Below are positions 12,201-64,000 of a DNA stretch of 64,000 nt, in pieces. The notes under the pieces are model-generated. The model was not told the origin of the DNA and did not search any database. It worked only from the letters and a program-made list of their open reading frames with translations. This DNA comes from an uncultured Bacilli bacterium (GTDB lineage: Bacteria; Bacillota_I; Bacilli_A; RF39; UBA660), in contig CAKPMY010000002.1 of assembly GCA_934168245.1 (NCBI GenBank), positions 78,237 through 142,236 of the forward strand. The letters are read 5' to 3'. The position numbers were made by a program, and so were the translations under genes. Within the stretch, counting starts at the first letter, position 1; each line of letters opens with the position of its first letter.

Positions 12201-15200
12201 GAACTATCTCTATCTTATTTCTAATACTACTAATTGGATCCAAGTTATCCCCCACATAGTTACTAAGTTTTGTAGAAAGACTAACTGGATTACTAGTTGT
12301 ATAACCCCTACCAATAAATCTACTTCTCTCAGTCTCATAACTATATTTATCAACAGGATTATCAATAATCAATCTACTAACCATATAATTATTAATACTA
12401 GAGTCTCCTCTACTTTTTCTCTTCATTATAAGAGCATTATTCTTATTATCCCATTCACTAGAAATAAACATATTATTAAATACCCTATGTGAAACATCAT
12501 CCATATTCTCGGATAATATAACCTCAGTATAAGTAGTTAGTTCTAAATTCTTATTAACATTACTATTATTTCTAAAAGAAATCTTTCTAATCTCAGCATT
12601 ATGATATGGACTAACTACAATCTCTGTAGTAGTCGTAATTAACCCATCAGTTCTTAAATACTTAATCCTATCAGATGCAAAAACAACTTCATAATTATCA
12701 CTATTCTTATTAATTGGAGCATAAGTATTAGACCAAACATAATTAGTATCTACATCTTTTATATACATAAATATTCCATAGTCTTGTTCTGTAACCTTAC
12801 GATATCTATTTAATTGTAAAGTTCTATATCTAGAAAAACTATTACCTCGATCATTCATAAGTAAAGCATATTTCTTATTCGATAAAACAGACACTTCTGG
12901 CATATAAGAAATATAATTAAATGTTCTAATATCATTCTCTATTCTTTCTTTTCTATAATCATACTTTTTATACTTAGCCATCTTCATATCTATATCAGTC
13001 TTTATCTGTACTTTTTCTTTAAGTAATATATCAAAAGTTCTAACTAATACATTTTCCTGGAAATAGTTCTTTACTGCTCCTAGTTTCAAATAATTAACTA
13101 TTCCTGCTAAAATCATTCCCTGATGATGTGCAAAGTAAGCTGACACAACACCAGTATTATCATAGTCATATGATTCATATAACCCATATTTACCAAACAT
13201 TTCTAAGTCTCTAAATTTCTCTATATTAGACATTACTTCTCTTGGAAATAACTCTAAAGCCATTATTGATGCATATGGAGAAAGAACTATTCTATTATCT
13301 TTATCTTCTTTTGCTTTTAAATACGGAGTTGAAAAAGCCCTATATTTATAATTTAGTGAATTATCTAACTCATTATAAGCAGCCTCACTAATACCCCATG
13401 GCAACTTCTTATTTATTTTTTCTATATAATCCTTCTGACAAAAATAAGCAAACTGATATGACTCATCCATCAATGTATTAGGATAATTCTTTAAAAATAA
13501 TAGCGGCATAAAATACTCAAAAGAAGTACCAGACCAAGAAATAAGTCCTTTACGTCCTTTATATGTAGTTAAAGATTTATCAAGAGAAAACCAATGTTTA
13601 ACAGGAACATCTCCCTTACAAATTGCTAAATAACTAGTAAGTCTAGCCTCACTCGCAAACTTATTATAGTTATATATTGAAAGTCTTCCCTCACTATCAT
13701 CATATCCAATACTAAATACATTCTTCTTTGTATATAACTTTGAAAAGTCAGCTTTTTTAATTAAACTATCACATCTTTTAACTAAATCTATAAACCCATG
13801 ACTATTTAAAAACTCTCTACAAACAACCAAACTAGAAACAAAATTACCTGAATCTACTAAAGATACAAATCTTGGGCTAAGAACTTCCATAGTCAAAATA
13901 TTATACCAGTTATATAAATGTCCATTCCACTTTTCTAACTTCTCTACTGTATCTAAAATATTAGAAATTAATGTCCTAGCCTCATCTTTTGTAATAAACT
14001 CCATCTCACAAGATGAAACTATACTAACTAATGAATACCCTATCGCTGTAGGACTAGTTCTCTTATCTAACTTTTCTTCTCTATTTTCCTGATAATTATC
14101 TGGTATTAAATAATTATATTTACTACATAAATTATCTGAAAAATACATCCAAGTATCATAAGCCAACCTAGTAAGATTCTCTTCTACCTCACCACTAATA
14201 CTATTCTTAGGTTTAATATCTAAACTAACAAAGTATAAAACAAATGGTGCCGTAATAAACATACCCGCTACTACATAAGAAATATATGACTTAAATATAA
14301 CTCCTAAAATAATAAAAATAATACCAAAAATATAATTAACTATAAAACTCTTCAAATACCCAACTAAACTCTTATTTAACTTCTTACTTGCCTCTTCTGC
14401 TGTAGTCCAATTAAGTAAATTCTTATGTGATACAAAAAGTCTATATAAAGTTCTAAAAAAAGCATCCATATAAACCCCAGTATAAAAAGGTATATTAATA
14501 AAAGTAATATAAGCCCTATATAATAAACTACGTCCCCCTACTAATAAATTCTTATAGTACACTGTCTTATTTTTATTTTTAAATTTAACTTTACTATACA
14601 AGAAAAATATAATTGAAATAGCAATCTCTAAAACTACAAATAAAATCCAAAGTACTGACTTAGTCCCATTAAATGACATTGCCAAAAGTAATATAAGTAA
14701 TAAACTAGGCATTAAAAACATTCTAAGAATATTATCTAATATTTTTAATTTTCCAAGTAAATTTATTGGATTTTTTACTTTAAGATTTTTTTTATTTTTA
14801 ACAGTATTTAAAAGCCACCCAATAATTTGTGTATCTCCTCTAGCCCATCTATGTTGTCTAGATACATCTGTTAAAAAGTCAGATGGCGCATCATCTATCA
14901 ATTCTACATCTGAAACATATCCAACTCTTAAATAATTACCTTCTAATAAGTCATGTGACAAAATCAAATTATCTGGAAAGGTATCTCCAAGTATTTTATC
15001 AAAACACTCTAAATCATATATTCCCTTACCTATAAAATTCCCTTCTCCAAAGAAATCTTGATATGTATTAAAAAGTGTTGCTGAATAAGTATCAAATCCA
15101 CCTACTCCAGCAAATATCTGACTATATAAACTCTTATTAGTAGCCTCTATTGAAGAACTAACTCTTGGTTGCATAATCCCATATCCAGAAATTACCTTAG

Positions 15201-46059: not shown

Positions 46060-47220
46060 CTAGTAAATATATCTTTCCCAATAATCAATAACTGACGAAC
46101 TAACAGTATTAAAATAAGTCTCAATCATAGTTGAAAGATAATTAGATTTCTTCCATATTGGATACTCATTAGAATCATAACAGCTATATCTAACTGTTGC
46201 TGTCATATATTCAAATGTCGAAGCCCGATCTTCATTAGCACTAGTCTGGGCATAATTATTAACAAAATACGAACCTGGAGTACCAGTCTTACTATATGAA
46301 TATGAACTATTCTCACTTCCATATGTAAAGTCCACAGGATTAAAACTATTCCATGCTGTAAACTTTCCTCCTGCACTCTCTATATAATGTTCTATATAAT
46401 GTAACATTTCATGATGAAAACTATCTGCAAATGGAAAATCCATCGCAATAGAAATAATTGCCTTCCTAGGTGAAAAGTCTGTAACACCCGTAACATTATC
46501 TGAAGTATAATTTTTAATAAGATAAACATTTAACGTCATATTCTGTTTAGAAAATTCTCTAAAAAACCCGACCGGATACATAGCAAGTGCCGAATTAAGT
46601 TGCTCTAAAGAGGATTTCATAACATTCGTATCTGTAATAGAATTAGTTCCAATATTCCCAACTACATAACCATTAGTCTCACTACCATATAAAACTTTAA
46701 TTCCATAAGTATCCTCTATTTGCTTACGATAAGTAACTAACGGATCAACTACCGGAGTAGGATCTGGTTCAGGTGTTGGAATCGGAGTTGGTGTAGGAAT
46801 TACCTCAGTTTTACTAGAATTACCATTACTAGGCTGTTGTGTATTATTACCAGTATTATTATTAGGAACATTACTAGAACCAGAATTACTACTAGAACTA
46901 TTATTACCGATATTATCATTACTACCAGTAGTACCATTACTATTATTATCAGTACTATTAGAATCACCAGTAGTAGTATTATCACCAGTAGTAACATTAT
47001 CCCCGTCATCACTATTATCTGGCTTCGCCGGAGGATTACCATCATTAGTAGTTATAATAACCTCACCAGTATCAGGATTGCTCTTCTTTATATCTTTAAT
47101 CGGATCTAGCGTATTTTCCGCCGAAAAATTCATATAAAGGCCCGTCATTATTAAAAGAATAGCCAAAAATATCATAGCCGAAGCAATTCTATTAATCGTC
47201 TTATTATTCATTCCTATCAC
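46060..47220 (-). CDS. Membrane-anchored secreted protein with G/D/N/T/S low-complexity linker, P/T-rich segment and C-terminal HExxH domain (putative zinc metallopeptidase)
   Basis: N-terminal TM IASAMIFLAILLIMTGLY. PTPTPIPTPEPDPTP linker. HHEMLHYIEH motif. Confidence 0.45.
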   Translation of the reverse strand: MIGMNNKTINRIASAMIFLAILLIMTGLYMNFSAENTLDPIKDIKKSNPDTGEVIITTNDGNPPAKPDNSDDGDNVTTGDNTTTGDSNSTDNNSNGTTGSNDNIGNNSSSSNSGSSNVPNNNTGNNTQQPSNGNSSKTEVIPTPTPIPTPEPDPTPVVDPLVTYRKQIEDTYGIKVLYGSETNGYVVGNIGTNSITDTNVMKSSLEQLNSALAMYPVGFFREFSKQNMTLNVYLIKNYTSDNVTGVTDFSPRKAIISIAMDFPFADSFHHEMLHYIEHYIESAGGKFTAWNSFNPVDFTYGSENSSYSYSKTGTPGSYFVNNYAQTSANEDRASTFEYMTATVRYSCYDSNEYPIWKKSNYLSTMIETYFNTVSSSVIDYWERYIY

Positions 47221-47305
47221 CTTATCATAAATTGATTATAACAAAGTAGAAAAAAAAAAGAAAGCCTAAGCCACTTCCTTTACAAATTAAACAAGTAAAG
47301 TAGTC

Positions 47306-48535
47306 TTAAGCTGCCCTTTTAACTAAAACATTTGCTTTATTCATTTCACTAATTTTATTATATAACTCTTGCGCCTCTTCTTTTTTTCCTTCTCGGTATA
47401 ATTGTCCTGCTCTATTCATCATTGCTTCTATTTCCATTTGATTAGAAGAACTCTGTACTTGTTCAAAGCCTAATAAACCTTTTTGTTGTGCAAGAGAATT
47501 ACTTAGTCTCTCTATTTGTCCTTTATTAACTAAAATAGCCTTTACCCTATCCTCACTTAATTTACGTATCTGCATAACTCCATTTGAAGAAACTACAGGA
47601 GTCTGTGCTACTGGAACAAGGGTATTATTTGAATATGCCGCTACTAAAGGAGAAACATTACTATCATTTGGTCTAGGTGCAGGGATACTTAAAATATTAT
47701 CATTAACTACAGGTGCAACAGGTTCAACTTCAGAAACAGAAGTAGTACCAGCCTCAGGAACAGTAGAAATAACTGTCGAAATAGGAATAACTTCTTCAGG
47801 CTTTATAACCGGTGTCACTACATTATGATAATCAACTTCTCCATTCAAATTATTAGTTGCATTATTCTTTTCTACCTCAGGCTTTTTCTCTTCTTTTTCT
47901 ACAACTGCCGTTTCTTCAACCCCTTGTTTAGAAGTAGAATCGTCCTTTGTCTCTTCTGCCTTTTTATCTTCATTATTATTAAAAATACCTTCAAATATAT
48001 TAGGAATTTTAGGTAAAGCCGGAGCATCAATTTTAATAGTAGGTGCTAATCCATTACCTATAATATTAGACTTATTCTCTGGTAAAATTGATTTAATAGG
48101 GCCATTACTAATTGTTTCCTTAACTGGTTTATTACCTTGAACAGATTCTTTCTTTTTAGAAGTATCATCTACTTTTAAAGGGGAATCTCCTTTAATTACT
48201 TCATTCTTTGCAACAGTATCAACATTTTTTTCTTTAACAATTTCATTTTTTACAATAGGAACTGTACTCTTTTCTTCAACTACTTCGTCAACTTTTACTT
48301 TCTTCTGTACATTTTCTTTTCCTGAAGCAACCACTGAAAAACTCTCAAACTGCTCAAAACTATCGGTTAAATTATCAGCCCCTTCTGCTGCTTTAACCAA
48401 ACACTCTATATATTTTTCCCTTTCTTCATCGTCTTCTATACTAGCCATAGCCTTTATCTTATCGCAAAAGAAATCGCATAAAAATATTTTTAAGTCTTTA
48501 ACAGCACTATCATCAACATTATCTAGTCCCATCAT
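47306..48535 (-). CDS. Hypothetical protein (409 aa; acidic N-terminus, K/E/V-rich low-complexity middle, helical C-terminus)
   Basis: ORF with no recognised motifs. The C-terminal 90 aa look like a coiled coil. Confidence 0.4.
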   Translation of the reverse strand: MMGLDNVDDSAVKDLKIFLCDFFCDKIKAMASIEDDEEREKYIECLVKAAEGADNLTDSFEQFESFSVVASGKENVQKKVKVDEVVEEKSTVPIVKNEIVKEKNVDTVAKNEVIKGDSPLKVDDTSKKKESVQGNKPVKETISNGPIKSILPENKSNIIGNGLAPTIKIDAPALPKIPNIFEGIFNNNEDKKAEETKDDSTSKQGVEETAVVEKEEKKPEVEKNNATNNLNGEVDYHNVVTPVIKPEEVIPISTVISTVPEAGTTSVSEVEPVAPVVNDNILSIPAPRPNDSNVSPLVAAYSNNTLVPVAQTPVVSSNGVMQIRKLSEDRVKAILVNKGQIERLSNSLAQQKGLLGFEQVQSSSNQMEIEAMMNRAGQLYREGKKEEAQELYNKISEMNKANVLVKRAA

Positions 48536-51790: not shown

Positions 51791-52186
51791 TTATTTAATT
51801 TCAATAATTTTTTTATTTTCTTCTTCAGTTTTCTTTGGAACAGTAATTTTTAAGCATCCATCAGTAAATGTAGCATCGATCTTATCTTGATCCAAATCAC
51901 CTAGATAAAATGATCTCTCATATTTACCATAAACTCTCTCACGACGAATATAATTCTTCTTTTCATCTTCTTCGTCATTTTCACTATTCTTAGAAGCAGT
52001 AATTGTTAAATAACCATTCTTAGCCTCTACTGAAATATCATTTTTTGAAAAACCAGGAACATCCATCTCAATATGGTAATTTCCATCTTTTTCATAAATA
52101 TCACATTTCATATTTTGTTCCTTCTTAGTTGTTAAAAAATCATCAAAAACATCATCTAAATAAAATTTTCTTGGAATTAAATCCAT
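51791..52186 (-). CDS. Hsp20/alpha-crystallin family small heat-shock protein
   Basis: The alpha-crystallin domain spans roughly DIYEKDGNYHIEMDVPGFSKNDISVE...GKYERSF...ATFTDGCLKITVPK. Start placed at the Met at 52186, because the ATG at 52252 is listed in the ORF track but lies upstream of the mapped promoter. Confidence 0.75.
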   Translation of the reverse strand: MDLIPRKFYLDDVFDDFLTTKKEQNMKCDIYEKDGNYHIEMDVPGFSKNDISVEAKNGYLTITASKNSENDEEDEKKNYIRRERVYGKYERSFYLGDLDQDKIDATFTDGCLKITVPKKTEEENKKIIEIK

Positions 52187-52217
52187 ACTTATCATCTTCC
52201 TTTCATTTACAATATAT

Positions 52218-52259
52218 ATTATACTCCTATTTTTAGCACTTGTCAATAGCAAGTGCTAA
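52218..52259 (-). promoter_or_regulatory. Sigma-A promoter (TTGACA-17-TATAAT) with CIRCE-like HrcA operator overlapping the -35
   Basis: The minus strand reads TTAGCACTTGCTATTGACAAGTGCTAA, i.e. TTAGCACTT-N9-AAGTGCTAA, against the CIRCE consensus TTAGCACTC-N9-GAGTGCTAA. The TTGACA lies inside the spacer and the TATAAT lies 17 nt downstream. Confidence 0.6.
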
Positions 52260-52348
52260 TTATTATTAATATTTTCAAAAAAATAATTAAATATTCCAAA
52301 AACTTATGTTATACTATATATAAATAGAATAAAGGTGAGGTAAAAACA

Positions 52349-53059
52349 ATGAATAATATAGGAAAAGAAAGAAAAAAAATAGAATTAGCCGACGTAATTA
52401 TTATCAGTGCAATTATAGTTGCTATAATAATTGCTATAATCGGAACAATAATTTGGGTAAGGTATAATCATAGTAAGGAACAAAAGAAAGAACAGTCAAC
52501 ATATACGACCATTCCAAACAATGAAAAATACAAATATAAAATAGATAATAATAAAATAAGTTTCTACAATGGTAAAAAAGTAGTAGACACATATACCTGT
52601 ATAAGTGATTGTTCTATTAGAAAAACAGCAGTAGATCAATTCATAATTGATTATGATGCATTTATACCAATATATGATAACAATAAATATATAATTTATA
52701 ATATTGATATAAAATCTACATACTATACTTTTGATACCTATCCAGAAAAAACTCTTAATGAAAATATTGGTATAATAACAAAAAATAATAAAAAAGGTGC
52801 TATTAAGAGAAATGGTGGTCTAGTTCTAAATACTGACTTCGATGCTATTGAAGTAACTAATAATTATATGGTTACTCTTCAAAACGGAATAGTAAATATT
52901 TATAATAGTTCAAATGTAAAATTAACAAACAACGAAATAATAAACATGTATGAAGTTATGCCATTAGAAAAAGATAATAAATTATACTTATATCTTACTG
53001 ATCTAAATGGTTCAAAAACTGTATTAGAATATAATCCAATCGCTAGAACATTTAATTAA
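52349..53059 (+). CDS. Hypothetical membrane-anchored protein (236 aa)
   Basis: N-terminal TM IIISAIIVAIIIAIIGTIIWV. The extracytoplasmic domain is N/Y/K-rich. Confidence 0.45.
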   Translation: MNNIGKERKKIELADVIIISAIIVAIIIAIIGTIIWVRYNHSKEQKKEQSTYTTIPNNEKYKYKIDNNKISFYNGKKVVDTYTCISDCSIRKTAVDQFIIDYDAFIPIYDNNKYIIYNIDIKSTYYTFDTYPEKTLNENIGIITKNNKKGAIKRNGGLVLNTDFDAIEVTNNYMVTLQNGIVNIYNSSNVKLTNNEIINMYEVMPLEKDNKLYLYLTDLNGSKTVLEYNPIARTFN

Positions 53060-53135
53060 GAAGGTTAACCCTTCTTTTTTTTATTTAGTATTACTTCCAA
53101 CAGAAAAGGAACAGCCTATAAACTGTTCCTTTTAA

Positions 53136-56100
53136 TTATTCTTGTTTTAATTCAAATCTTGCTAAATACTCATTAACTAATTTCATAGTCTTATTGTATT
53201 CAACTGTTAACTCTTCAAAGTTAGCATTAACAAAGTCTTTATCTTCTTCTTTACTCTTTAATTCATGTTGATAACTAATATCTGCTAACTTCATAAATCC
53301 TAAGTACTTACAATCACTCTTTAGAGAATGAACTTCTATTGCATAATCATGCATATTAGCCTCTTCCTTATACTGATTAATTCTACCCCATTTAGCAGGA
53401 ACATCAGCAACGAAATCTCCTAATGTCATATTATACATTTCCATATCACCAAGTAATTCTAATGACTTATCCATGTCAACATTATTATCTCTTAAGAACT
53501 TCTCCATAGCCTCATCACTCTTATCAGTAGCAACTTCTACAGGAGCAGGAGTCTCTTCTTTTACTTCAGCAGGTTTCTCTGCAACTGGTTCTTCAACCTT
53601 AGTCTCAGGAACTTCTACCTTTTCCTCAGCAGGTTTCTCTGTAACTGGTTCTTCAGTCTTAGTCTCAGGAGTCTCTTCTTTTACTTCAGCAGGTTTCTCT
53701 GTAACTGGTTCTTCAGCCTTAGTCTCAGGAGCCTCTTCTTTTACCTCAGCAGGTTTCTCTGTAACTGGTTCTTCAGCCTTAGTCTCAGGAGCCTCTTCTT
53801 TTACCTCAGCAGGTTTCTCCGCAACCGGTTCTTCAGTCTTAGTCTCTGGAGTTTCTACCTTTTCTTCAGCAGACTTCTCTGCAACTGGTTCTTCAACCTT
53901 AGTCTCTGGAGTCTCTTCTTTTACCTCAGCAGGTTTCTCCGCAACCGGTTCTTCAGTCTTAGTCTCTGGAGTTTCTACCTTTTCTTCAGCTGACTTCTCT
54001 GCAACTGGTTCTTCAACCTTAGTCTCTGGAGTCTCTTCTTTTACCTCAGCAGGTTTCTCTGCAACTGGTTCTTCAGCCTTAGTCTCAGGAGCCTCTTCTT
54101 TTACCTCAGCAGGTTTCTCTGTAACTGGTTCTTCAACTTTAGTTTCAGAAACTTCTACTTTCTCTTCAGCAGGCTTTTCTGTAACTGGTTCTTCAACTTT
54201 AGTTTCAGAACCTTCTACTTTTTCTTCAGCAGGTTTCTCTGCAACTGGTTCTTCAGCCTTTGTCTCAGGAGCCTCTTCTTTTACCTCAGCAGGTTTCTCT
54301 GCAACTGGTTCTTCAGCCTTTGTCTCAGGAACCTCTTCTTTTACCTCAGCAGGCTTCTCTGCAACTGGTTCTTCAACCTTAGTCTCAGAGACTTCTACCT
54401 TCTCCTCAGCAGGCTTCTCTGCAACTGGTTCTTCTACCTTAGTCTCAGGAGCCACATCTTTTTCTTCTACAGGTTTCTCTGTAACAGTTTCCTCAACCTT
54501 AGCCTCAGGAGCCTCTTTCTTTATTTCAATAACATCTTTCTTTTCCTCTACTGGTGCATCTTTTAACACACTCTCTCTACCAGGAAGTACATTAGAAGTT
54601 CTTCTTTCCCCTACTACTCCAAGTGTTTTACCATCAAAGAACTTATGAATAATCTTATCAAGTTCTATTGTATCGATTGGCATTGGTAAATAACTATCAA
54701 AGCCTTCTGCTAAATACTTCTCTCCCATACCATTCATAACATTTGCTGTTAAAGCAACTATTGGTGGTATTTCATAATCATCCAATCTACGAAGAATTCT
54801 AATCGTTTCAATACCGTCCATACCTGTCATCATATGATCTAGGAAAATAATATCATAATGATTACCATACTTGAATTTATAAATACAATCTTTACCAGAT
54901 TCAGCAGTATCTACATTAAAGTTATACTTCTTTAATAATCTCTCTGAAACTTTTAAATTCAAAGGACTATCATCAACTACTAATGCCGTAAAGTCTGTAC
55001 AATCTAAGAAATCTTTTACTCTTGTCGTCGTATTAGTTTGAGTAACACTACCTATCGGTGTAGGATCAATTACTTTTAATGGTAAATCTACAAAGAAAGT
55101 AGTACCAACTTCAAACTCACTTTCAAACCAAATTTTACCACCCATCAAGTCTACGAACTTTTTAGTAATAACAAGTCCTAATCCAGTACCCTCTATTTCA
55201 TTAGAAACAGCACTGTCAAGTCTTGAGAACTTTTCAAATAACTTATTAAAGTCTTCTTTCTTAATACCATATCCAGTATCTGAAATTTTAATATGTAAAA
55301 GTACAGAATCAACACCAGTCTTTTCAGATACCATAGCAACTTTAATTTTACCAACCTCAGTATACTTAACTGCATTATTAGTAATATTTAATAATACTTG
55401 ATATACCTTAGTAGCATCTGCATAAACTTTAGAAGGAATTTGTTCATCCATTTCTATATAAAGTTTAACTGGACTATTTCCAAGTCTTGCTTCTATAACA
55501 CTAGATAAGTCTCTTACAATCTTAGTAAGACTACATTCTCTATTAGCAAGTGTATCATTACCAGACTCAATTTTAGAAATATCCAAAATATTATTAATTA
55601 TATCAACCAAATTTGTACCAGCAGTCGCAATACTTTGAATATCATTACGAGCCGCTGTTTCATCAAATACATTACTATTAAGAAGCGAATCACTAAATCC
55701 TATAATAGCATTCATTGGAGTTCTAATTTCATGTGACATATTTGATAAGAAATCTGTCTTAGATCTATTAGATTTATCAATATCTGATTTTAAACTATCT
55801 ATTTCATTAACTAAATGAATATCTGGATTCTCAATAATGAAATATAAGAAGAATACTTGTAATGAACAACAAATTACATAAATACTAACTTTATTAAGTA
55901 AAATCTGCGCTGTAAGCATAACTGCCATAACAAACATTATCAATGTAATAGCAACTCTTCTTTTTAGTGCATACTGTTTACAAGTTGTATGAGTAGCAAC
56001 TAAAACACAAGTACACATAATTGTTAAACATGCAAGTACAATATATTCATTTGTACCGGCAATAAATCCTGTACTAACAGTCTCAAAATTTGATTTAGGT

Positions 56101-56519
56101 AAAATTAAGTACCCAACAAATATTAAGATTGAGGAAATCATAATAATTCTCGTTCTATGACTTCCTTTAAATAAATCTTTGAACGAATTAAATTTTAAAT
56201 CACATAAATATACAAAACAATATACACAGTATAGACTTACCCATAAAATGAAGCCCAACCAGTGAAGAATTGAAATAACATTCGAAACTACAGGTGAATT
56301 AAAATAACCTAATGAAAGTACATATAATAATTCAGAAATTAAAATATAAAGTACTGAAATTAATATAGCTGCATATATTTTACTTCTTAAACCTGATTGT
56401 CTAGCCTTAGAGTAATATATCGTAATAAGGAAGCCAGTGAACATTAAACAAGTAAATACAAGGAAAAAACTAGTTGAAAGATTTTCTTGTATATTAAATA
56501 TACTAGTCATTAAAATCAT
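53136..56519 (-). CDS. Unorthodox hybrid sensor histidine kinase: multi-TM sensor, HisKA, HATPase_c, receiver, long PEVK-like repeat linker, C-terminal HPt domain
   Basis: H-box SHEIRTPMNAIIGFS. G-boxes GTGLGL. Receiver ALVVDDSPLN...DIIFLDHMMTGMDG. About 17 x 20-aa repeats (EEPVAEKPAEVKEEAPETKA). C-terminal HPt H-box HSLKSDCKYLG. Confidence 0.75.
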   Translation of the reverse strand: MILMTSIFNIQENLSTSFFLVFTCLMFTGFLITIYYSKARQSGLRSKIYAAILISVLYILISELLYVLSLGYFNSPVVSNVISILHWLGFILWVSLYCVYCFVYLCDLKFNSFKDLFKGSHRTRIIMISSILIFVGYLILPKSNFETVSTGFIAGTNEYIVLACLTIMCTCVLVATHTTCKQYALKRRVAITLIMFVMAVMLTAQILLNKVSIYVICCSLQVFFLYFIIENPDIHLVNEIDSLKSDIDKSNRSKTDFLSNMSHEIRTPMNAIIGFSDSLLNSNVFDETAARNDIQSIATAGTNLVDIINNILDISKIESGNDTLANRECSLTKIVRDLSSVIEARLGNSPVKLYIEMDEQIPSKVYADATKVYQVLLNITNNAVKYTEVGKIKVAMVSEKTGVDSVLLHIKISDTGYGIKKEDFNKLFEKFSRLDSAVSNEIEGTGLGLVITKKFVDLMGGKIWFESEFEVGTTFFVDLPLKVIDPTPIGSVTQTNTTTRVKDFLDCTDFTALVVDDSPLNLKVSERLLKKYNFNVDTAESGKDCIYKFKYGNHYDIIFLDHMMTGMDGIETIRILRRLDDYEIPPIVALTANVMNGMGEKYLAEGFDSYLPMPIDTIELDKIIHKFFDGKTLGVVGERRTSNVLPGRESVLKDAPVEEKKDVIEIKKEAPEAKVEETVTEKPVEEKDVAPETKVEEPVAEKPAEEKVEVSETKVEEPVAEKPAEVKEEVPETKAEEPVAEKPAEVKEEAPETKAEEPVAEKPAEEKVEGSETKVEEPVTEKPAEEKVEVSETKVEEPVTEKPAEVKEEAPETKAEEPVAEKPAEVKEETPETKVEEPVAEKSAEEKVETPETKTEEPVAEKPAEVKEETPETKVEEPVAEKSAEEKVETPETKTEEPVAEKPAEVKEEAPETKAEEPVTEKPAEVKEEAPETKAEEPVTEKPAEVKEETPETKTEEPVTEKPAEEKVEVPETKVEEPVAEKPAEVKEETPAPVEVATDKSDEAMEKFLRDNNVDMDKSLELLGDMEMYNMTLGDFVADVPAKWGRINQYKEEANMHDYAIEVHSLKSDCKYLGFMKLADISYQHELKSKEEDKDFVNANFEELTVEYNKTMKLVNEYLARFELKQE
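53521..54540 (-). repeat. Tandem 60-nt repeat array (about 17 units, 120-nt higher-order periodicity) inside the hybrid kinase gene
   Basis: Consecutive 60-nt stretches are near-identical, e.g. 53701-53760 vs 53761-53820, and 53821-53880 vs 53941-54000. Confidence 0.85.
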
Positions 56520-58390
56520 TCACCATCACCTCCTAAATACCTCTCTAAGATTTTATGTAAATCTTTATACTTAAATGGTTTTGCTAAGTAATCCGTAAAT
56601 CCTTCACTTATGTATCTATCTCTAGATCCAGAATAAGAATTTGCTGTTAATGCAATAACTGGAACTGTACAACCATCATCTCTTAAAATATGAACAGTAG
56701 CAATACCATCTAAATCAGGCATCATATGATCTAGGAATATAATGTCATAATGATTTTTCTTAACCAATTCAATACAATCTCTACCATTAGATGTACTACT
56801 TAAATCTAAGTTAAATTGCTCTAATAATCTTGTAGCAAGTTTAATGTTAACTATATTATCATCAACTACTAATGCTTTCTTACCTGCTAAGTTAAGTAGT
56901 TTTCTCTCAACAACGCCAGAGTTATCAAATGAAATAGCTCCGACTTTCATATCATCAACAACTACTTGATCAAGACTTATAAGGTATCTTGTACCCTTAC
57001 CTTTTTCATTTTTAAAATCAATGGTACCACCCATAATTTCAATAAGTCTTTTAGCAACAATCAAACCTAACTTAACACTATCAGTACCAATTGAAGAGCC
57101 TTCCTCAGAGAAATCTTCAAAACTTCTATTAAATTCAGCCTCTGTCATTTCATGACCTGTATTAGCAACAATCAAACTCAACTTGTAATTATCACCAACG
57201 TAAGCACCACCAACATCTAATGATACACTACCAAATTTCGTATGACTAATAGCATTAGCCAAAACATTAACTAATATTTTATATATCTTATCAGAGTCAC
57301 CCTTAAACTTCGTAGGAATATTACCATCAACATTAATCTTAAAGTCTAAAACATCACGACTTACTTTTGCTGATGTAACACTATTTATCTCTAATAATAA
57401 ATCTTCAATTCGATACTCTTTACTATCAGTTTTTTCTTTACCAGACTCAATTCTTGAAATATCAAGAATATTATTTATAAGTTCAAGTAAATCCCCAGAT
57501 GCTTGTTTAATATCTTTAACATCACGTTTTACAAGATCTTGTGTCAATTCTTTTTCTTCTAATAAAGCCTGACTAAAGCCTAAAATTGTATTCATTGGAG
57601 TTCTAATTTCATGAGAAATACTTGCCAAGAAATCACTCTTTGCCTTATTAGCAGCCTCAGCCTCTTTTCTACTTTCCTCTGCTTGAGAAAGTAATTTTGT
57701 ATCCTGACTCTCAATCGTAAAGAACAAAGCATTAAATAAGAATACATACATTATATAAACCATATTGAAACGATAATTAAATATTACAAAAACCAGTATT
57801 GAAAAGAACATAAATACAATACTAAAGTAAAGTACTGGAGCATTCAATTCCTTTGGATTAGTCTTTCTATATCTCCAAATCATGATAGTAGATGCAATAG
57901 CCCCAATCAAAGACATAAAGAATATTATATACATACCTTGTCCACCAATTAATAAATAACGAGGATTAATATTTGTATGATATGCAATTGGTAACATAAA
58001 TGTAACCACATATATTAAAGCATCAATAATTATTAAAGCAACACCTAATACTCTTCTAGTTTTAGTATAATTAGTAATAAGTGTTTCATTAATAGTAACT
58101 GAATAAATATAAACTAATGCTACAGAAGTAAATACTATATCCGCCAAAACATGAACACGACATAACACTTCCGTAAAGATTGGATGTTTATCCATATTTG
58201 CTATAGCAAAAACACAACCTATATCAAGAATACCTAACACTACTAAGAAAATAACTAAAATTGTAAAGAACAGGTTTGCAAGCCGCCGTTCATCTTTAGC
58301 CTTTTTCTTCCAGAAATATAAACACATAATAACGATTGAATAACACAATCCAACTAAACTTATTGCAGAACTAAATAACACAAAGCACAC
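56516..58390 (-). CDS. Hybrid sensor histidine kinase (multi-TM sensor, HisKA, HATPase_c, receiver)
   Basis: H-box SHEIRTPMNTILGFS. Receiver ALVVDDNIVN...DIIFLDHMMPDLDG. A 4-nt ATGA overlap with the downstream kinase gene. Confidence 0.75.
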   Translation of the reverse strand: MCFVLFSSAISLVGLCYSIVIMCLYFWKKKAKDERRLANLFFTILVIFLVVLGILDIGCVFAIANMDKHPIFTEVLCRVHVLADIVFTSVALVYIYSVTINETLITNYTKTRRVLGVALIIIDALIYVVTFMLPIAYHTNINPRYLLIGGQGMYIIFFMSLIGAIASTIMIWRYRKTNPKELNAPVLYFSIVFMFFSILVFVIFNYRFNMVYIMYVFLFNALFFTIESQDTKLLSQAEESRKEAEAANKAKSDFLASISHEIRTPMNTILGFSQALLEEKELTQDLVKRDVKDIKQASGDLLELINNILDISRIESGKEKTDSKEYRIEDLLLEINSVTSAKVSRDVLDFKINVDGNIPTKFKGDSDKIYKILVNVLANAISHTKFGSVSLDVGGAYVGDNYKLSLIVANTGHEMTEAEFNRSFEDFSEEGSSIGTDSVKLGLIVAKRLIEIMGGTIDFKNEKGKGTRYLISLDQVVVDDMKVGAISFDNSGVVERKLLNLAGKKALVVDDNIVNIKLATRLLEQFNLDLSSTSNGRDCIELVKKNHYDIIFLDHMMPDLDGIATVHILRDDGCTVPVIALTANSYSGSRDRYISEGFTDYLAKPFKYKDLHKILERYLGGDGE

Positions 58391-58512
58391 TCCCTTTACG
58401 ACTCGTTAGTATAAGGCACCCTAACTAGCCATCTTCTATTATCTAAAGTTAATTTTACAATAAATGTTAAAAAAAAACAACACAATAAAGAAAAAAGAGT
58501 GACAAATTCACT

Positions 58513-60861
58513 CTAATTATTAACATCCCATTTCCAGTTTTTAATATATGGCATATCCTCACCATATTCACTGATATAGTCTTTATGTTTTGAAAGCATA
58601 TCCAAGCACCAATCAACAAGTGCCTTAGATGTATCTGCATATCTTGGAATCTCTTTCAATACTGCAATTACTAAATGGAATCTATCTATTTCATTTTGTA
58701 CTCTTATATCGAAAGTAGTTGTTATTGTACCTTCTTCTTTATATCCATGTACATGCATATTACGATTTTCTCTTTTATATGTCAACTGATGAATCAAAGA
58801 AGGATAACCATGGAAGTTAAATATAATTGGCTTATTCTTTGTAAATATAGCATTATATTCTTGATCACTCATACCATGTGGATGTGTCTCTGGAGATTGT
58901 AATTTCATTAAATCTACTACATTAACTACTCTAATTTTAATACCCTTAACTGTTTTTCTTAATATGTCAACTGCTGCTAATGTCTCAAGTGTTGGAGTCT
59001 CCCCACAACAAGCCATTATAACATCAGGATTTCCTCCATCATTACTAGCAAAATCCCAAACTCCAAGTCCCTTAGTACAATGTTCTTTTGCTTGCTCTTT
59101 TGTTAACCATTGTGGTCTTGGATGTTTAGAAGCAACTATTACATTTACATAATTTTTAGTTCTAATACAATGTTCAAAACAAGAAAGTAAACAGTTTGTA
59201 TCTGGAGGTAAATACATTCTAACAACATCAGCCTTTTTCGTAACTAAATGATTTAAGAAGCCTGGATCTTGATGTGTATATCCATTATGATCCTGTTGAA
59301 AAACATGCGATACAAGTAAATAATTCAATGATGCTATTGGTGCCCTCCAAGGAATCTGATTACATACTTTTAACCATTTAGCATGTTGACTAGCCATAGA
59401 ATCAACTATTCTAATAAAAGCCTCATAACTATGAATAAAACCATGTCTACCCGTAAGTAAATATCCCTCTAGCATACCCTGACATAAATGTTCAGACAAG
59501 TATGAATCCATTACTCTACCAGTATTAGATAAATATTCATCCTCTGGTTTAATTGTCTTATAATTCCAAGTTCTATTTTCAACTTCAAATACATGATTAA
59601 ATCTATTAGATAATGCCTCATCTGGTCCAAATATTCTAAAGTTTTTATTTTCTTTATTTAAAACAAATACATCTCTTATATACTTACCAAGTTCCATCGT
59701 GTCTTGTCCAACTATACAACCCGGAGTCTTAACATCAACTGCATAATCTTGCCAATTAGGTGTATTAATATCTTTTAATAATAATCCCCCATTTGCATAA
59801 TTACTTGCTCCCATACATTTACTTGGAGCAGGACATAACTCTCTAAGTTCTTTTATAAGTCTACCATTTGCATCAAATAACTCTTCTGGATGATAACTTA
59901 GTAACCATTTTTCTATTACTTTAATATTTTCAGGATTATCTCTTGTTATTGGAATTGGTACTTGATGTGCTCTAAAACTTCCTTCCATTCTCTTAGCCCC
60001 TACTTCTTTAGGACCAGTCCATCCCTTAGGAGTAGTTAAAATTATCATTGGATAATTCCCAGTTCCAGTTTTCTTAATCTTCTTTATATCTTTAACAACC
60101 TTTTCTAAAACTTCAGCCATCTTCTCATGCATTTTCATTGGATCTGTTCCTGTTACAAAATATGGCTTCCAACTAAGTCCATAGAAAAAGTCTTCCATCT
60201 CTTCTACACTCATTCTTCCAAATATAGTAGGATTTGCTATTTTAAATCCATTACGATGTAAAATTGGTAATACAACACCATCAGTCTTAGGATTTAAAAA
60301 TTTATTAATATTCCAAGAAGTTGCTAAAGGCCCAGTCTCAGCCTCTCCATCTCCTACAACACATGCCGCTATTAGATCAGGATTATCTAAAACGGCTCCT
60401 GCTGCATGTGATAAACTATATCCCAATTCTCCACCTTCATGAATAGATCCTGGAGTCTCAGGAGCAACATGTGAAGATACCCCTCCTGGAAAACTAAACT
60501 GTTTACATAACTTTTTAAGTCCTGCTTCATCCTCAGTTATTTCTGGATAAAACTTAGTATATACTCCCTCTAAATAATTATTAGCAATCATCGCCTGACC
60601 ACCATGTCCAGGTCCTGATAAATATATCATTTTTAAATCATATTTCTTTATAATTCTATTCAAATGCATATAAATAAAATTTTGTCCTGGAGCAGTACCC
60701 CAATGCCCAACTACATTAGGTTTAATATCTGTTATAACAAGTCCTCTTCTAACTAAAGGATTATCTAACAAATATAATTGAGCAACAGACAAATAATTTA
60801 ATGCCCTAAAATACTTATTCATTAAATTTAATTCTTTTCTAGATAACACCGGCATAAACAC
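58513..60861 (-). CDS. xfp: Xylulose-5-phosphate/fructose-6-phosphate phosphoketolase
   Basis: 782 aa. N-terminus LSVAQLYLLDNPL...GHWGTAPGQNFIYMHLNR...GPGHGG. The thiamine-PP motif region GDGEAETGP is conserved. Confidence 0.85.
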   Translation of the reverse strand: MFMPVLSRKELNLMNKYFRALNYLSVAQLYLLDNPLVRRGLVITDIKPNVVGHWGTAPGQNFIYMHLNRIIKKYDLKMIYLSGPGHGGQAMIANNYLEGVYTKFYPEITEDEAGLKKLCKQFSFPGGVSSHVAPETPGSIHEGGELGYSLSHAAGAVLDNPDLIAACVVGDGEAETGPLATSWNINKFLNPKTDGVVLPILHRNGFKIANPTIFGRMSVEEMEDFFYGLSWKPYFVTGTDPMKMHEKMAEVLEKVVKDIKKIKKTGTGNYPMIILTTPKGWTGPKEVGAKRMEGSFRAHQVPIPITRDNPENIKVIEKWLLSYHPEELFDANGRLIKELRELCPAPSKCMGASNYANGGLLLKDINTPNWQDYAVDVKTPGCIVGQDTMELGKYIRDVFVLNKENKNFRIFGPDEALSNRFNHVFEVENRTWNYKTIKPEDEYLSNTGRVMDSYLSEHLCQGMLEGYLLTGRHGFIHSYEAFIRIVDSMASQHAKWLKVCNQIPWRAPIASLNYLLVSHVFQQDHNGYTHQDPGFLNHLVTKKADVVRMYLPPDTNCLLSCFEHCIRTKNYVNVIVASKHPRPQWLTKEQAKEHCTKGLGVWDFASNDGGNPDVIMACCGETPTLETLAAVDILRKTVKGIKIRVVNVVDLMKLQSPETHPHGMSDQEYNAIFTKNKPIIFNFHGYPSLIHQLTYKRENRNMHVHGYKEEGTITTTFDIRVQNEIDRFHLVIAVLKEIPRYADTSKALVDWCLDMLSKHKDYISEYGEDMPYIKNWKWDVNN

Positions 60862-60940
60862 CCTCCTATTCTTAATCTATTATAGCCTAAACACAAAAAA
60901 AGATAAAGATATTTTTCAATCTTTATCTTATTAATTTTAC

Positions 60941-62005
60941 CTAAATAGTTGCTCCATCATCTTTAGAAACAGTAGGAGTAACATTGTCACTATTTACTAT
61001 ATTTTCTTTGGCTTCTGGAATATTTTTCAATGAAACAGACTCAGTACTATCAACACTTGTATTAGTATTTACTGCCTCATCTTTACTACTAGTATCCATA
61101 GTTGCATTAACTGCAACCCCAGTATTTACTGCTGGAAAAGTAGTTATACCATTAGGATTATTATTTACAGGTTCATTAACAGTATTGTTAACTAAAGCAG
61201 TTTCACCTTTATTTTTTTTCTTTCTATTAACTATAAAGAATACAACTCCTCCAATAATTACAACCCCTACAACAACAAGTATAATTATATTAGTAGTATT
61301 ATATAATGTAAATGCAAATTCTATATTTTTAAAATCTTTAGTCTTAGTTAAATCCCAAGCCAAATCCTTACCATCATTATTTACACTAGTAGCATTATTA
61401 CTAATTGCTTTATATGGTAATTTTACTGTAAATTTCATATCCATATTACTCATATATTGTTCTAATAATGCACTATCATCACTTGATATACCAAAATCAT
61501 CATCTGTAGTAGTATCATCTTCTTCTCTACTATAAGAAGTCTCAGTATCATCTGTATTATCCATTTCAGGAATACTAGAATTATCAAACTTAAATGTCGC
61601 TGTATAAGTATTCTTTAAAAAACCTTTTTTAACTTTAAATATTTTACTAATTTCTTCAGCATCTCCTGCTGTTCCCATCATATTTGATAATTCATAAGAA
61701 ACATCATCTTTCTCACTACTATAAGTATTAATATCAAGGTTGTTAGCATAAATTTTAACACCCTTCATAGTATCTTCTTTATAATCTTCTACTTTAAAGC
61801 CTCTACTCTCTATTTCTTTTTTATCAGCATCATCTAGTATTTCTTTTCCTTCTAGAAAACTTTCATCTATTGCATAAATAATAGTATAATTAAACTTTCC
61901 ATTCTTTGTAATTTCCATTGTTGCATTAAATTTCATACATCCTGTCAACATAAATGCTATTATTGCCACAAATAGCACTTTTAAAATTTTAACACTTCTC
62001 TTCAT
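60941..62005 (-). CDS. Lipoprotein with C-terminal TM anchor, tandem paralog 1 (354 aa)
   Basis: Lipobox LTGC. Shares MKFNATMEI / VKKGFLKNTY / FTVKLPYKAISNNAT / TM helix with the upstream paralog. The C-terminal tail is Asn/Thr/Val-rich. Confidence 0.5.
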   Translation of the reverse strand: MKRSVKILKVLFVAIIAFMLTGCMKFNATMEITKNGKFNYTIIYAIDESFLEGKEILDDADKKEIESRGFKVEDYKEDTMKGVKIYANNLDINTYSSEKDDVSYELSNMMGTAGDAEEISKIFKVKKGFLKNTYTATFKFDNSSIPEMDNTDDTETSYSREEDDTTTDDDFGISSDDSALLEQYMSNMDMKFTVKLPYKAISNNATSVNNDGKDLAWDLTKTKDFKNIEFAFTLYNTTNIIILVVVGVVIIGGVVFFIVNRKKKNKGETALVNNTVNEPVNNNPNGITTFPAVNTGVAVNATMDTSSKDEAVNTNTSVDSTESVSLKNIPEAKENIVNSDNVTPTVSKDDGATI

Positions 62006-62092
62006 AACTCTCTCCTCTATCTTACTATGAGTATAATCTATATAAGAGTTTTATTCAAGAAAAAAAACAGGAAATCCTGTTTTTATTGTAAA

Positions 62093-62890
62093 TTATTTTT
62101 TGCTATGAACATTATTCTTAGTAACATTATAGTTCTTTTTCATTATTATAAATACAACTACTACAATAACAACTATTGCTAAAAGAACTATCATAAATAT
62201 ATTTGTTATATTATACAAGGAAAATTCAAAATTGATAGTTCCGAATTCATCCGCTTTTAATAAGTTCCAAGATAATTCCTTACCATCATTTTTACTATCA
62301 GTAGCATTATTACTAATTGCTTTATATGGTAATTTTACTGTAAAAGTTACTTCTTCTGTACCTTTATATTTTTCTAATTTTTCTAGTAACTCAGCACTTT
62401 CTTCATCTTCTGTTGCATTAAGATAATTTGCTAAATTACTTAAATCATCAAGTGAATAATCTCCAAGATCAAATTTAGCACTATAAGTATTCTTAAAGAA
62501 TCCCTTTTTTACTTTAAATAATTTTGCTTCTTCATCATTATTAATTACTGCTGAAAGATCATAATTATCAGTTTCTTTATCACTACTTACATCTCTAATT
62601 TTAAGATCTTTAATAGCAAGATTAACACCTTTCATTCCTTTAGCATTATAATTTGTAACTGTTATTCCTGCTTGATTTAACGCTGAAATCTTATCTGCTG
62701 AAAGTATTTCATTATCTCCTACAACTTCTTCTTTAAAAGCAAGTAACGAACTATATGAAATTACTCCATTAGGTTGAATCTCCATTACTGCATTAATCTT
62801 TGTACAACCTGATAATACAAATACCATTAGCATAACAAATACTACTTTTAAAGTCTTTTCCATTTTTTTCACAAACTTCTCCCCTTTCAT
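62093..62890 (-). CDS. Lipoprotein with C-terminal TM anchor, tandem paralog 2 (265 aa)
   Basis: Lipobox LSGC. The same conserved blocks as 60941..62005. Confidence 0.5.
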   Translation of the reverse strand: MKGEKFVKKMEKTLKVVFVMLMVFVLSGCTKINAVMEIQPNGVISYSSLLAFKEEVVGDNEILSADKISALNQAGITVTNYNAKGMKGVNLAIKDLKIRDVSSDKETDNYDLSAVINNDEEAKLFKVKKGFFKNTYSAKFDLGDYSLDDLSNLANYLNATEDEESAELLEKLEKYKGTEEVTFTVKLPYKAISNNATDSKNDGKELSWNLLKADEFGTINFEFSLYNITNIFMIVLLAIVVIVVVVFIIMKKNYNVTKNNVHSKK

Positions 62891-63055
62891 TGCGCATATT
62901 ATACATCAAAAAAGGTTTTAAATCAATAATAATTTTACACAGATTGCATTTAACTATTTAACTAACCCTAATTTTACACAGCCAACATATAAGTAACCAT
63001 ATTTATCCATAGAAAAAGCAAATAATCATCAAATCATTTGCTTTCTATTCTGTCT

Positions 63056-64000
63056 CTATTTAGCAATTACTTCACAAATTAATGAACTAATCTCTGTTGG
63101 ATTATCTATTGGAAGTCCGGCTATCATTTTAGCCTCTGCATATAAAATCTTTGTATATTTATCAAACTCTTCTTTATTACTTGCATACAAATCTTTTAAT
63201 TTATCAGCGATTGGATGCTTCTCATTTACTTCAAGTACTTGTTGTGCTTTAATTCCCATATCATTAGGCATTGCATCAAATACTTTTTGCATCTCTATTG
63301 AAACATCTCCCTTAGTAGTTAAACATACTGGATGTTTCTTTAATTTATTACTAAATTTAACCTCACTAACATCTCCAATAAGTTCCTTCATATGTTTTAA
63401 TAAGTCAACATTATCTTCATTTACTTTCTTTAATTCTTCTTTTTCTTCATCACTTTCAAGGCCTAAGTCCTCATTTTCAACATTAGCAAACTTCTTACCT
63501 TCATATTCTTGAATAGCCGTAATTGCAAACTCATCTACATAATCAGTTAAGTATAAAATATCAAAGTCATGATCTTTTACTTGTTCAACATTAGGCATAG
63601 CATCAATTTTCTTAATAGATGAACCAGCTGCATAATAAATCTTTTCTTGTCCATCTTTCATACTATCAACATATTCTTTTAAAGTAACAAGTTTTTCTTC
63701 TTTAGCTGAATAAAACATAACTAAGTCTTTTAACTTATCTTTATCAGCACCAAAGTTATTATAAACTCCGTACTTTAATTGAACACCAAATGTCTTAAAG
63801 AATGAAATATAATTTTCTCGATCATTCTTTAACATATCTTCTAATTCTTTACGAATCTTACTTTCAATATTTTTAGCAATCAATTTCAAGTTATGACTTT
63901 CTTGTAATACTTCTCTTGAAATATTTAATGATAAATCTTCACTATCTACAACACCTTTAACAAAACTAAAGTAATCTGGCAATAGATCAGCACATCTATC
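63056..64000 (-). CDS. htpG: Hsp90 chaperone HtpG (C-terminal part; the gene start lies beyond the window end)
   Basis: YFSFVKGVVDSEDLSLNISREVLQ and C-terminal dimerisation-domain homology. The frame stays open to position 64000. Confidence 0.8.
   Translation of the reverse strand, partial: DRCADLLPDYFSFVKGVVDSEDLSLNISREVLQESHNLKLIAKNIESKIRKELEDMLKNDRENYISFFKTFGVQLKYGVYNNFGADKDKLKDLVMFYSAKEEKLVTLKEYVDSMKDGQEKIYYAAGSSIKKIDAMPNVEQVKDHDFDILYLTDYVDEFAITAIQEYEGKKFANVENEDLGLESDEEKEELKKVNEDNVDLLKHMKELIGDVSEVKFSNKLKKHPVCLTTKGDVSIEMQKVFDAMPNDMGIKAQQVLEVNEKHPIADKLKDLYASNKEEFDKYTKILYAEAKMIAGLPIDNPTEISSLICEVIAK

Follow-up and report, generated by a model that had tools for sequence, protein, structure and literature searches.

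In a 64,000-nucleotide stretch of DNA from an uncultured Bacilli bacterium (GenBank assembly GCA_934168245.1, contig CAKPMY010000002.1; the whole stretch is hereafter called the window), a gene for a membrane-bound hybrid histidine kinase carries a tandem array of 60-nucleotide (nt) units between the regions encoding its receiver (REC) domain and its C-terminal histidine phosphotransfer (HPt) domain. We propose that the array probably encodes a cytoplasmic, disordered, acidic tether that keeps a swinging HPt phosphocarrier on the membrane kinase, its composition being under selection and its length only loosely constrained. The locus is a coding variable number tandem repeat (VNTR): the 60-nt unit is a multiple of 3, and copy number is polymorphic among conspecific strains, with all alleles taken from short-read assemblies. 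The features discussed below are located in Table 1.

At the DNA level, Tandem Repeats Finder (TRF) reported a period of 60 nt, 16.3 copies, 85% matches and 0% indels for the array, whose score of 1278 exceeds that of every other repeat in the window by far. Self-identity was 0.85 at a lag of 60 nt and at its multiples, compared with 0.24 to 0.37 at lags that were not multiples. Placed in register, the array comprises 16 full units of 20 amino acids (aa 667-986) and one partial unit, with two flavors of unit, KEEAPETKAEEPVAEKPAEV and KVEVSETKVEEPVAEKPAEE, mixed along its length. An initial annotation of this DNA had given the same unit type and the same 60-nt period, whereas its count of about 17 copies gives way to 16 full units and a partial one; the periodicity it had called near-perfect is exact and free of indels, but the copies themselves are only about 85% identical. 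It had also described a 120-nt super-period, for which we found no array-wide signal, as identity within the array was 0.853 at a lag of 120 nt and 0.852 at 60 nt. Duplication at 120 nt was confined to units 9 to 12, where unit 10 equals unit 12 (60/60) and unit 9 matches unit 11 at 59/60 positions; this is a recent local duplication. Exact repeats inside the array reach 78 nt at most, and a blastn search of the array against a plasmid collection returned no match.

The coding strand of the array is the minus strand, where it forms a single open frame within the open reading frame (ORF) of the kinase, which encodes 1,127 aa, and the other two frames contain 56 and 17 stops. A broken frame had been raised as a possible flaw of the array, yet the frame runs through uninterrupted and joins the conserved REC and HPt domains. 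A plus-strand ORF of 391 aa (53473..54648, +), rich in Ser, Gly, Thr and Phe, was dismissed as a shadow that the repeat codon composition casts on the opposite strand, because it is restricted to the array, while the minus frame continues into conserved REC and HPt. A comparable shadow ORF lies on the strand opposite the repeat of a homologous kinase gene (L019, described below).

The domain layout of the kinase was established from Pfam matches and a full-length AlphaFold2 model built with 24 homologues. In the model, the sensor consists of transmembrane (TM) helices at residues 14-37, 44-73, 76-105, 121-139, 156-178, 185-207 and 214-230; no meaningful Pfam match was obtained for this region at E ≤ 10, and neither hydropathy nor the model revealed a TM-like segment beyond residue 229. 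The phospho-acceptor residues His263 and Asp561 are both invariant among the 24 homologues. The initial annotation had called the protein an ArcB/BvgS-type hybrid kinase with the repeat lying between REC and HPt. Its placement of the repeat agrees with both Pfam and the model (REC at aa 513-624, HPt at about aa 1002-1121), as does the ArcB/BvgS-like domain order; orthology, in contrast, was not borne out. The best NCBIfam scores were 299 bits for TorS (cut-off 676), 293 for BarA (cut-off 890) and 253 for ArcB (cut-off 838), and these matches were confined to the kinase-REC core, with the HPt region outside them. Because the scores fall far under every equivalog cut-off, that for EvgS among them, the kinase shares architecture, not orthology, with ArcB, BarA and TorS. 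As judged from its sequence, it is thus an "unorthodox" kinase by architecture (HisKA, HATPase_c, REC, HPt) and the orthologue of no named kinase.

The C-terminal module fell below the Pfam threshold for Hpt (PF01627; aa 1033-1094, 17.6 bits against a cut-off of 24.6, E = 0.0046), and a sequence-profile search of the module against the PDB found no HPt, only one irrelevant match at E = 0.16. Modeled on their own by AlphaFold2, the last 139 residues form a helical bundle with a predicted local distance difference test (pLDDT) score of 87.8. When this bundle was compared with the PDB by Foldseek, the top 19 matches were all HPt proteins, with probabilities of about 1 and TM-scores of 0.5 to 0.73 at weak E-values (0.08 to 1.3); they include HptB (7c1i), plant AHPs, a Shewanella protein (3myf) and BarA (3iqt). 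The candidate phospho-acceptor, His1064, sits in the helix spanning residues 1056-1073 in the motif H-S-L-K-S, as confirmed by a residue check and the model, and H[SA]LKSDCKYLG is invariant among homologues. A free-standing HPt encoded in a relative (L004) shares 35% identity with the module (tblastn, 4e-23) and itself passes the Pfam threshold with 32.5 bits, as does the corresponding domain of the L019 homologue with 30.7 bits. Fold prediction and homology together identify the C-terminal module as a true HPt, and the implied relay residues would be His263, Asp561 and His1064.

Table 1. Position of the kinase gene, its predicted domains, the repeat array and adjoining features in the window
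Feature	Coordinates	Strand	Basis
Hybrid ("unorthodox") histidine kinase gene, 1127 aa: 7TM sensor, HisKA, HATPase_c, REC, repeat linker, HPt	53136..56519	-	ORF list, Pfam, AlphaFold2
Predicted membrane sensor, aa 1-230, seven predicted TM helices, without known family	55830..56519	-	AlphaFold2, hydropathy
HisKA (DHp), aa 254-320; putative phospho-acceptor His263 (codon 55731..55733) in SHEIRTP	55560..55760	-	Pfam, E=3.2e-16
HATPase_c catalytic domain, aa 368-482	55074..55418	-	Pfam, E=1.6e-24
REC, aa 513-624; putative phospho-acceptor Asp561 (codon 54837..54839) in IIFLDHMM	54648..54983	-	Pfam Response_reg, E=9.5e-20
Predicted disordered linker, aa 640-991 (352 aa)	53547..54602	-	AlphaFold2 pLDDT, composition
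Tandem array, 60 nt x 16.3	53546..54522	-	TRF, unit table, unit identity matrix
HPt four-helix bundle, aa 1002-1121; putative phospho-acceptor His1064 (codon 53328..53330) in VHSLKSDCKYLG	53157..53516	-	AlphaFold2, Foldseek, homology
Upstream paralogous hybrid kinase, 624 aa: TM region, HisKA, HATPase_c, REC, no HPt	56516..58390	-	Pfam
Palindromic hairpin, 11-bp stem, between convergent kinase gene and ORF 52349..53059	53104..53133	.	Terminator-like scan

The segment between REC and HPt had been described as a Pro/Glu/Val/Lys spacer, and its composition bears this out: over aa 640-991, Glu accounts for 33.0%, Lys for 15.1%, Val for 13.9% and Pro for 12.8% of residues, 74.8% together, with 11% Ala and 9% Thr. 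A disorder prediction points the same way, as the AlphaFold2 model shows pLDDT values below 50 over these residues (block means of 22 to 34) and no secondary structure. Charged residues make up a fraction of 0.49 across aa 633-1000, where the net charge is -65 (-0.18 per residue) and the proline content 12.5%. The repeat core contains no Ile, Leu, Met, Phe, Trp, Tyr or Cys, and its charges are well mixed (kappa of about 0.06). Each 20-aa unit has three prolines spaced 5 to 8 residues apart with no runs of X-Pro; a spacer of the TonB type, which has X-Pro runs, was ruled out by the absence of Glu-Pro or Lys-Pro dipeptide runs in the units. The linker is cytoplasmic, since no TM segment follows residue 229.

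In model linkers, expansion is maximal, with a scaling exponent nu of about 0.7, at approximately 0.2 net charge per residue, and a proline fraction of at least 0.1 gives a nu of about 0.57 (Sorensen and Kjaergaard, 10.1101/577536). A random-coil estimate with conservative scaling puts the two ends of a 368-aa chain about 13.6 nm apart and the effective concentration at about 0.2 mM; for a chain of 24 aa, the values are about 3.3 nm and 16 mM. By extrapolation to a nu of 0.6 to 0.7, the reach of the tether would be approximately 20 to 35 nm, with an effective concentration lower than the random-coil value.

The composition led the initial annotation to liken the spacer to the entropic-spring PEVK segments of titin, in which case the segment would bear or sense a mechanical load, such as one acting between the membrane and an anchor in the cytoplasm. 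The likeness in composition holds (75% Pro, Glu, Val and Lys), and the chain is predicted to be disordered and expanded, but when the linker alone was searched against Pfam at E ≤ 10, no PPAK, PEVK or other repeat family was matched, the only hit being HC2 (E = 0.15, 12.6 bits against a cut-off of 40). Moreover, the tether ends in a free HPt module of 125 aa with neither a TM nor an anchor domain, so that its architecture implies no load path, and in the L004 relative the HPt is a free soluble protein. We consider a force-bearing role very improbable. Still less credible to us is that the array represents a surface-exposed variable repeat of the type found in Gram-positive or mycoplasma antigens, serving immune or phage evasion. 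In-frame variation in the copy number of Glu/Lys/Pro-rich repeats is typical of such antigens, and the host lineage is labeled Mycoplasma, Tenericutes or Bacilli in public records; against this, the linker lies between cytoplasmic REC and HPt domains, with no TM segment after residue 229 and no signal or sorting motif.

We compared the window allele with public sequences, in which relatives are labeled as "Bacilli bacterium," "Mycoplasma sp. CAG:877," "Tenericutes" or "Mycoplasmatota" gut metagenome-assembled genomes. The initial annotation had expected the repeat number to vary between strains, and this is what we found: the cluster formed at 90% identity around the 1,127-aa protein (P0122) includes alleles of 1087, 1067, 987 and 967 aa, corresponding to 14, 13, 9 and 8 units beside the 16 of the window, on flanks that are nearly identical (623-625 of 625 N-terminal and 124 of 124 C-terminal residues). 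All observed length changes consist of whole units of 20 or 17 aa and keep the frame, which rules out an on/off phase-variable contingency locus. In DNA from a 14-unit strain (L055), 11 of 1,998 positions upstream of the array and none of 426 downstream differ from the window. The first seven units of the 14-unit allele (P0001) are those of the window, whereas its units 9 to 13 have best counterparts of no more than 56/60 on flanks of 99 to 100% identity; comparing flanks with units in this strain thus indicates that turnover is much more rapid in the distal half of the array than in the sequences on either side. Clusters from sister species step likewise by 20 aa (886 to 1006 aa; 897 to 997 aa) or 17 aa (823 to 1112 aa). 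Unequal recombination between units fits these length data equally well as the slippage invoked by the initial annotation.

Since all public alleles derive from short-read metagenome assemblies (MEGAHIT k141 and SPAdes, an 898-kb contig being from SPAdes), we asked whether mis-assembly could have created the array or set its length. Besides the uniform source of the data, the 13-, 9- and 8-unit alleles resemble clean internal deletions of the 16-unit allele, as collapse would give. However, the longest exact repeat is shorter than the k of 141 named in a contig that carries the exact protein (k141_781952), so that every 141-mer in the array is unique. The identical 1,127-aa protein was recovered on 3 public contigs from NCBI and ENA sources, and the 14-unit allele is not simply a shortened copy, since it has units that lack near-identical counterparts in the window, which makes it a genuinely different allele. 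An intact frame links two conserved domains, and comparable arrays occur in hundreds of homologues. Altogether, these results speak for a correct assembly of the window array and, at least in part, for a real polymorphism, and we regard an assembly origin of the array as very unlikely.

Among homologues, linkers are between 24 and 455 aa long, with a median of 232 aa (119 of the 120 homologues listed, a protein without an HPt, P0104, being left out), and repeat periods are 20, 17, 18, 39, 29, 21 or 11 aa, or not clearly defined. The shortest linkers, of 24 to 45 aa, are proline-free. In a distant clade of 33 to 35% identity, one kinase of 756 aa (L007, 5974-8244) has a linker of about 50 aa, and a protein of 1077 aa with the same architecture (L019, 3718-6951) has one of about 330 aa built of unrelated 16-aa repeats, TEPVTEPKTEVETTPK. 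The different periods, together with the expansion in L019, indicate that the REC-HPt junction was enlarged repeatedly and independently by acidic material rich in Pro, Thr, Val and Lys. In the excluded protein, P0104 (1517 aa, 6 members, 280-kb contig), REC is followed by only about four units and then by some 800 aa that are unrelated; the protein is a genuine fusion or truncation, or else a chimera assembled through a shared repeat. Separately, two HPt-coding matches of equal percent identity lie 5 kb apart in another relative (L009:3055-3393 and L009:8065-8403), pointing to either a duplication of the kinase gene or a contig segment that occurs twice.

The free-standing HPt mentioned above comes from an uncultured Bacilli bacterium (BRZ_GH__bin20; L004, 3936-9677) that encodes two tandem hybrid kinases homologous to the kinase of the window and its upstream paralogue. 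There, the second kinase stops directly after REC, and just upstream of the kinases lie a gene for a free 122-aa HPt and one for a 536-aa REC-HD_5 response regulator with an HD-GYP-like motif, HENYDGTGYPKGL. The two-kinase pair is likewise kept in long-linker relatives (L001-L003 and L054-L057) and in a short-linker one (L058). Considered together, these relatives indicate that evolution has sampled free, closely tethered and distantly tethered HPt domains on the same kinase pair. In the window, the stop codon of the upstream kinase gene overlaps the start of the HPt-bearing kinase gene by 4 nt (ATGA).

We then examined sequence divergence between the units of the array. Synonymous divergence (pS) was 0.35 and nonsynonymous divergence (pN) 0.10, giving a dN/dS of 0.23. 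Neither Val13 nor any of the eight Lys/Glu positions varies between units, and the only substitutions are exchanges among Ala, Val, Thr and Gly, exchanges between Pro and Ser, and Glu/Val exchanges at two positions. This low ratio and the invariant charges indicate that the peptide composition of the units is under purifying selection and that the repeat is not untranslated junk. The GC content is 45% in the array against 29% in the rest of the kinase gene, with the excess at codon position 1, which indicates that it is driven by amino acid composition; the linker composition thus opposes the mutational bias of the genome. We propose from these sequence patterns that selection would target charge, proline and the lack of hydrophobic residues, not precise length.

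The chief rival to a selected tether is that the array is a neutral passenger: the junction tolerates insertions, a unit prone to slippage or recombination drifts without effect on signaling, and the composition merely keeps the insert soluble and harmless. The wide span of linker lengths on conserved flanks, the 8- to 16-unit range within a species, the existence of short-linker and split-HPt relatives, and nearly aperiodic, decayed repeats in some lineages all fit this explanation, and purifying selection for harmlessness would yield the same signals as those reported above. It accounts less readily for the dN/dS of 0.23 and the invariant charged positions, for the persistence of long acidic Pro/Glu/Val/Lys/Thr linkers in most lineages, for independent origins with different units at the same junction, and for a GC-rich composition against a background of 29% GC. 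On balance, we find neutrality possible but doubtful.

According to the tether model that we prefer, in which the chain is expanded and non-sticky, phosphate would pass from His263 to Asp561, then to His1064 and on to a response regulator. The tethered HPt might roam over approximately 14 to 35 nm and, because it stays attached to the kinase, would still be loaded at a high local concentration of some 0.01 to 0.2 mM; in a review passage citing Capra et al. (2012), tethering is described as raising local concentration in hybrid kinases (PMC12189002). Such a reach could allow contact both with the receiver of the co-transcribed, HPt-less paralogous kinase and with a soluble response regulator. 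As 60-nt units are gained, lost and replaced in frame, tether length would drift between strains, and each change would be expected to alter effective concentration and hence relay flux. We infer the chain dimensions, the effective concentrations, the sharing of the HPt by two kinases and the effect of length on signaling.

Several points weigh against this model. Sequence and polymer scaling are the sole basis for the proposed role of the tether, and gene arrangement is what suggests that the HPt is shared with the upstream kinase. Orthologues with proline-free linkers of 24 to 45 aa, or with no tether at all as in L004, presumably work, so that a long tether is not required. The two-fold range of lengths within one species argues against finely tuned length, and assembly collapse of a longer allele could account for some of those with 13, 9 and 8 units. 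Finally, no terminal response regulator, further REC domain or other HPt was found within the 64-kb window, which leaves the downstream half of the relay model unanchored.

A bolder version of the tether model treats the repeat as a tuning knob, in which the number of units would set the effective concentration of an HPt shared by two kinases, and strains of these uncultured gut Bacilli with small genomes would show heritable, reversible differences in relay gain, speed or cross-talk. We consider this rather unlikely; if it were true, the series from free HPt through short linker to 455-aa linker would record selection on tether length. As a further possibility, the dimensions of the polyanionic chain may respond to cytoplasmic Mg2+, polyamines or ionic strength, providing a second input to the pathway.

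Known systems resemble the window kinase in different respects. ArcB, BvgS, EvgS, BarA/GacS and TorS likewise combine HisKA, HATPase_c, REC and HPt in this order within a single membrane protein, which implies a His-Asp-His-Asp relay, but their REC-HPt linkers are a few tens of residues long. The window kinase differs from them by its uncharacterized 7-TM sensor and by a REC-HPt tether that is a 352-aa polyanionic repeat of polymorphic copy number. By analogy, the closest mechanistic counterparts of a tethered HPt may be the swinging-arm carriers, i.e., the lipoyl domains of 2-oxo-acid dehydrogenase E2 and the P1 HPt domain of CheA on its flexible P1-P2 linker, in which a small domain shuttles a covalent intermediate on a flexible, proline-punctuated, hydrophobic-free tether with Ala, Pro and charged residues; the single E2 and CheA linkers show no sequence kinship with that of the window, which is about 10 times longer, consists of recent tandem repeats and varies between strains. 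The PEVK region of titin has in common with the tether a content of about 75% Pro, Glu, Val and Lys, disorder, repetition and variable length. The titin PPAK repeat, though, is about 28 aa long, whereas the tether is bacterial and cytoplasmic, with one free end, a 20-aa unit and no PPAK match. The FtsZ C-terminal linker, the ZipA Pro/Gln linker and the proline-rich spacer of TonB are flexible tethers whose length varies widely between species while composition is kept. They share with the tether the nature of a low-complexity, proline- and charge-rich spacer of variable length but act in division or envelope energy transduction, whereas the window tether lies in a phosphorelay and is a prominent intraspecies VNTR. 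The split system of L004 has a homologous kinase pair and a 35% identical HPt, except that this HPt is free and encoded beside a REC-HD_5 regulator.

Full-text literature searches found no description of a disordered, PEVK-like or proline-rich repeat linker between REC and HPt. By tethering their partners, hybrid kinases presumably gain speed and insulation, and most work on how tether length or sequence affects phosphotransfer flux has relied on engineered linkers. In this family, a series of tether lengths occurs naturally on conserved domains, namely, a free HPt, linkers of 24 to 45 aa, repeat linkers of 150 to 455 aa and 8 to 16 units within one species, which makes the relation of length to signaling directly testable. 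The interest of the family lies in this natural series for a phosphorelay; a new principle is not yet demonstrated. Even as a neutral passenger, the array would be a clean example of a signaling junction that tolerates disorder. Public records name the homologues only "ATP-binding protein" or "hybrid sensory kinase," and precomputed Pfam lists for them lack Hpt; the generic names and the missing domain indicate that the relay architecture is under-called in this lineage.

Terminator-like hairpins flank the kinase pair on both sides. The one downstream of the HPt-bearing gene, which matches the consensus, is likely a bidirectional terminator that closes the two-kinase unit. A promoter scan gave 31 matches compared with 26.3 ± 4.8 in shuffled sequences, i.e., no excess. 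Gene order across positions 51791-63982 (-) of the window is shared with L054-L057, relatives of 53 to 100% identity, and comprises an HtpG-like HSP90, one or two LppM-like membrane proteins, an XFP phosphoketolase, the two hybrid kinases and a small HSP20. Elsewhere in the window, two adjoining ORFs without a Pfam family (46060-48535, -) contain long low-complexity regions: one, of 386 aa, combines a tract rich in Asn, Ser, Gly and Thr with a run of PTPTPIPTPEPDPTP and, at 46885-46984, a weak repeat of 33 nt, and the other, of 409 aa, has stretches rich in Glu, Lys and Val. A very large ORF of 2546 aa occupies positions 9238-16878 (-).

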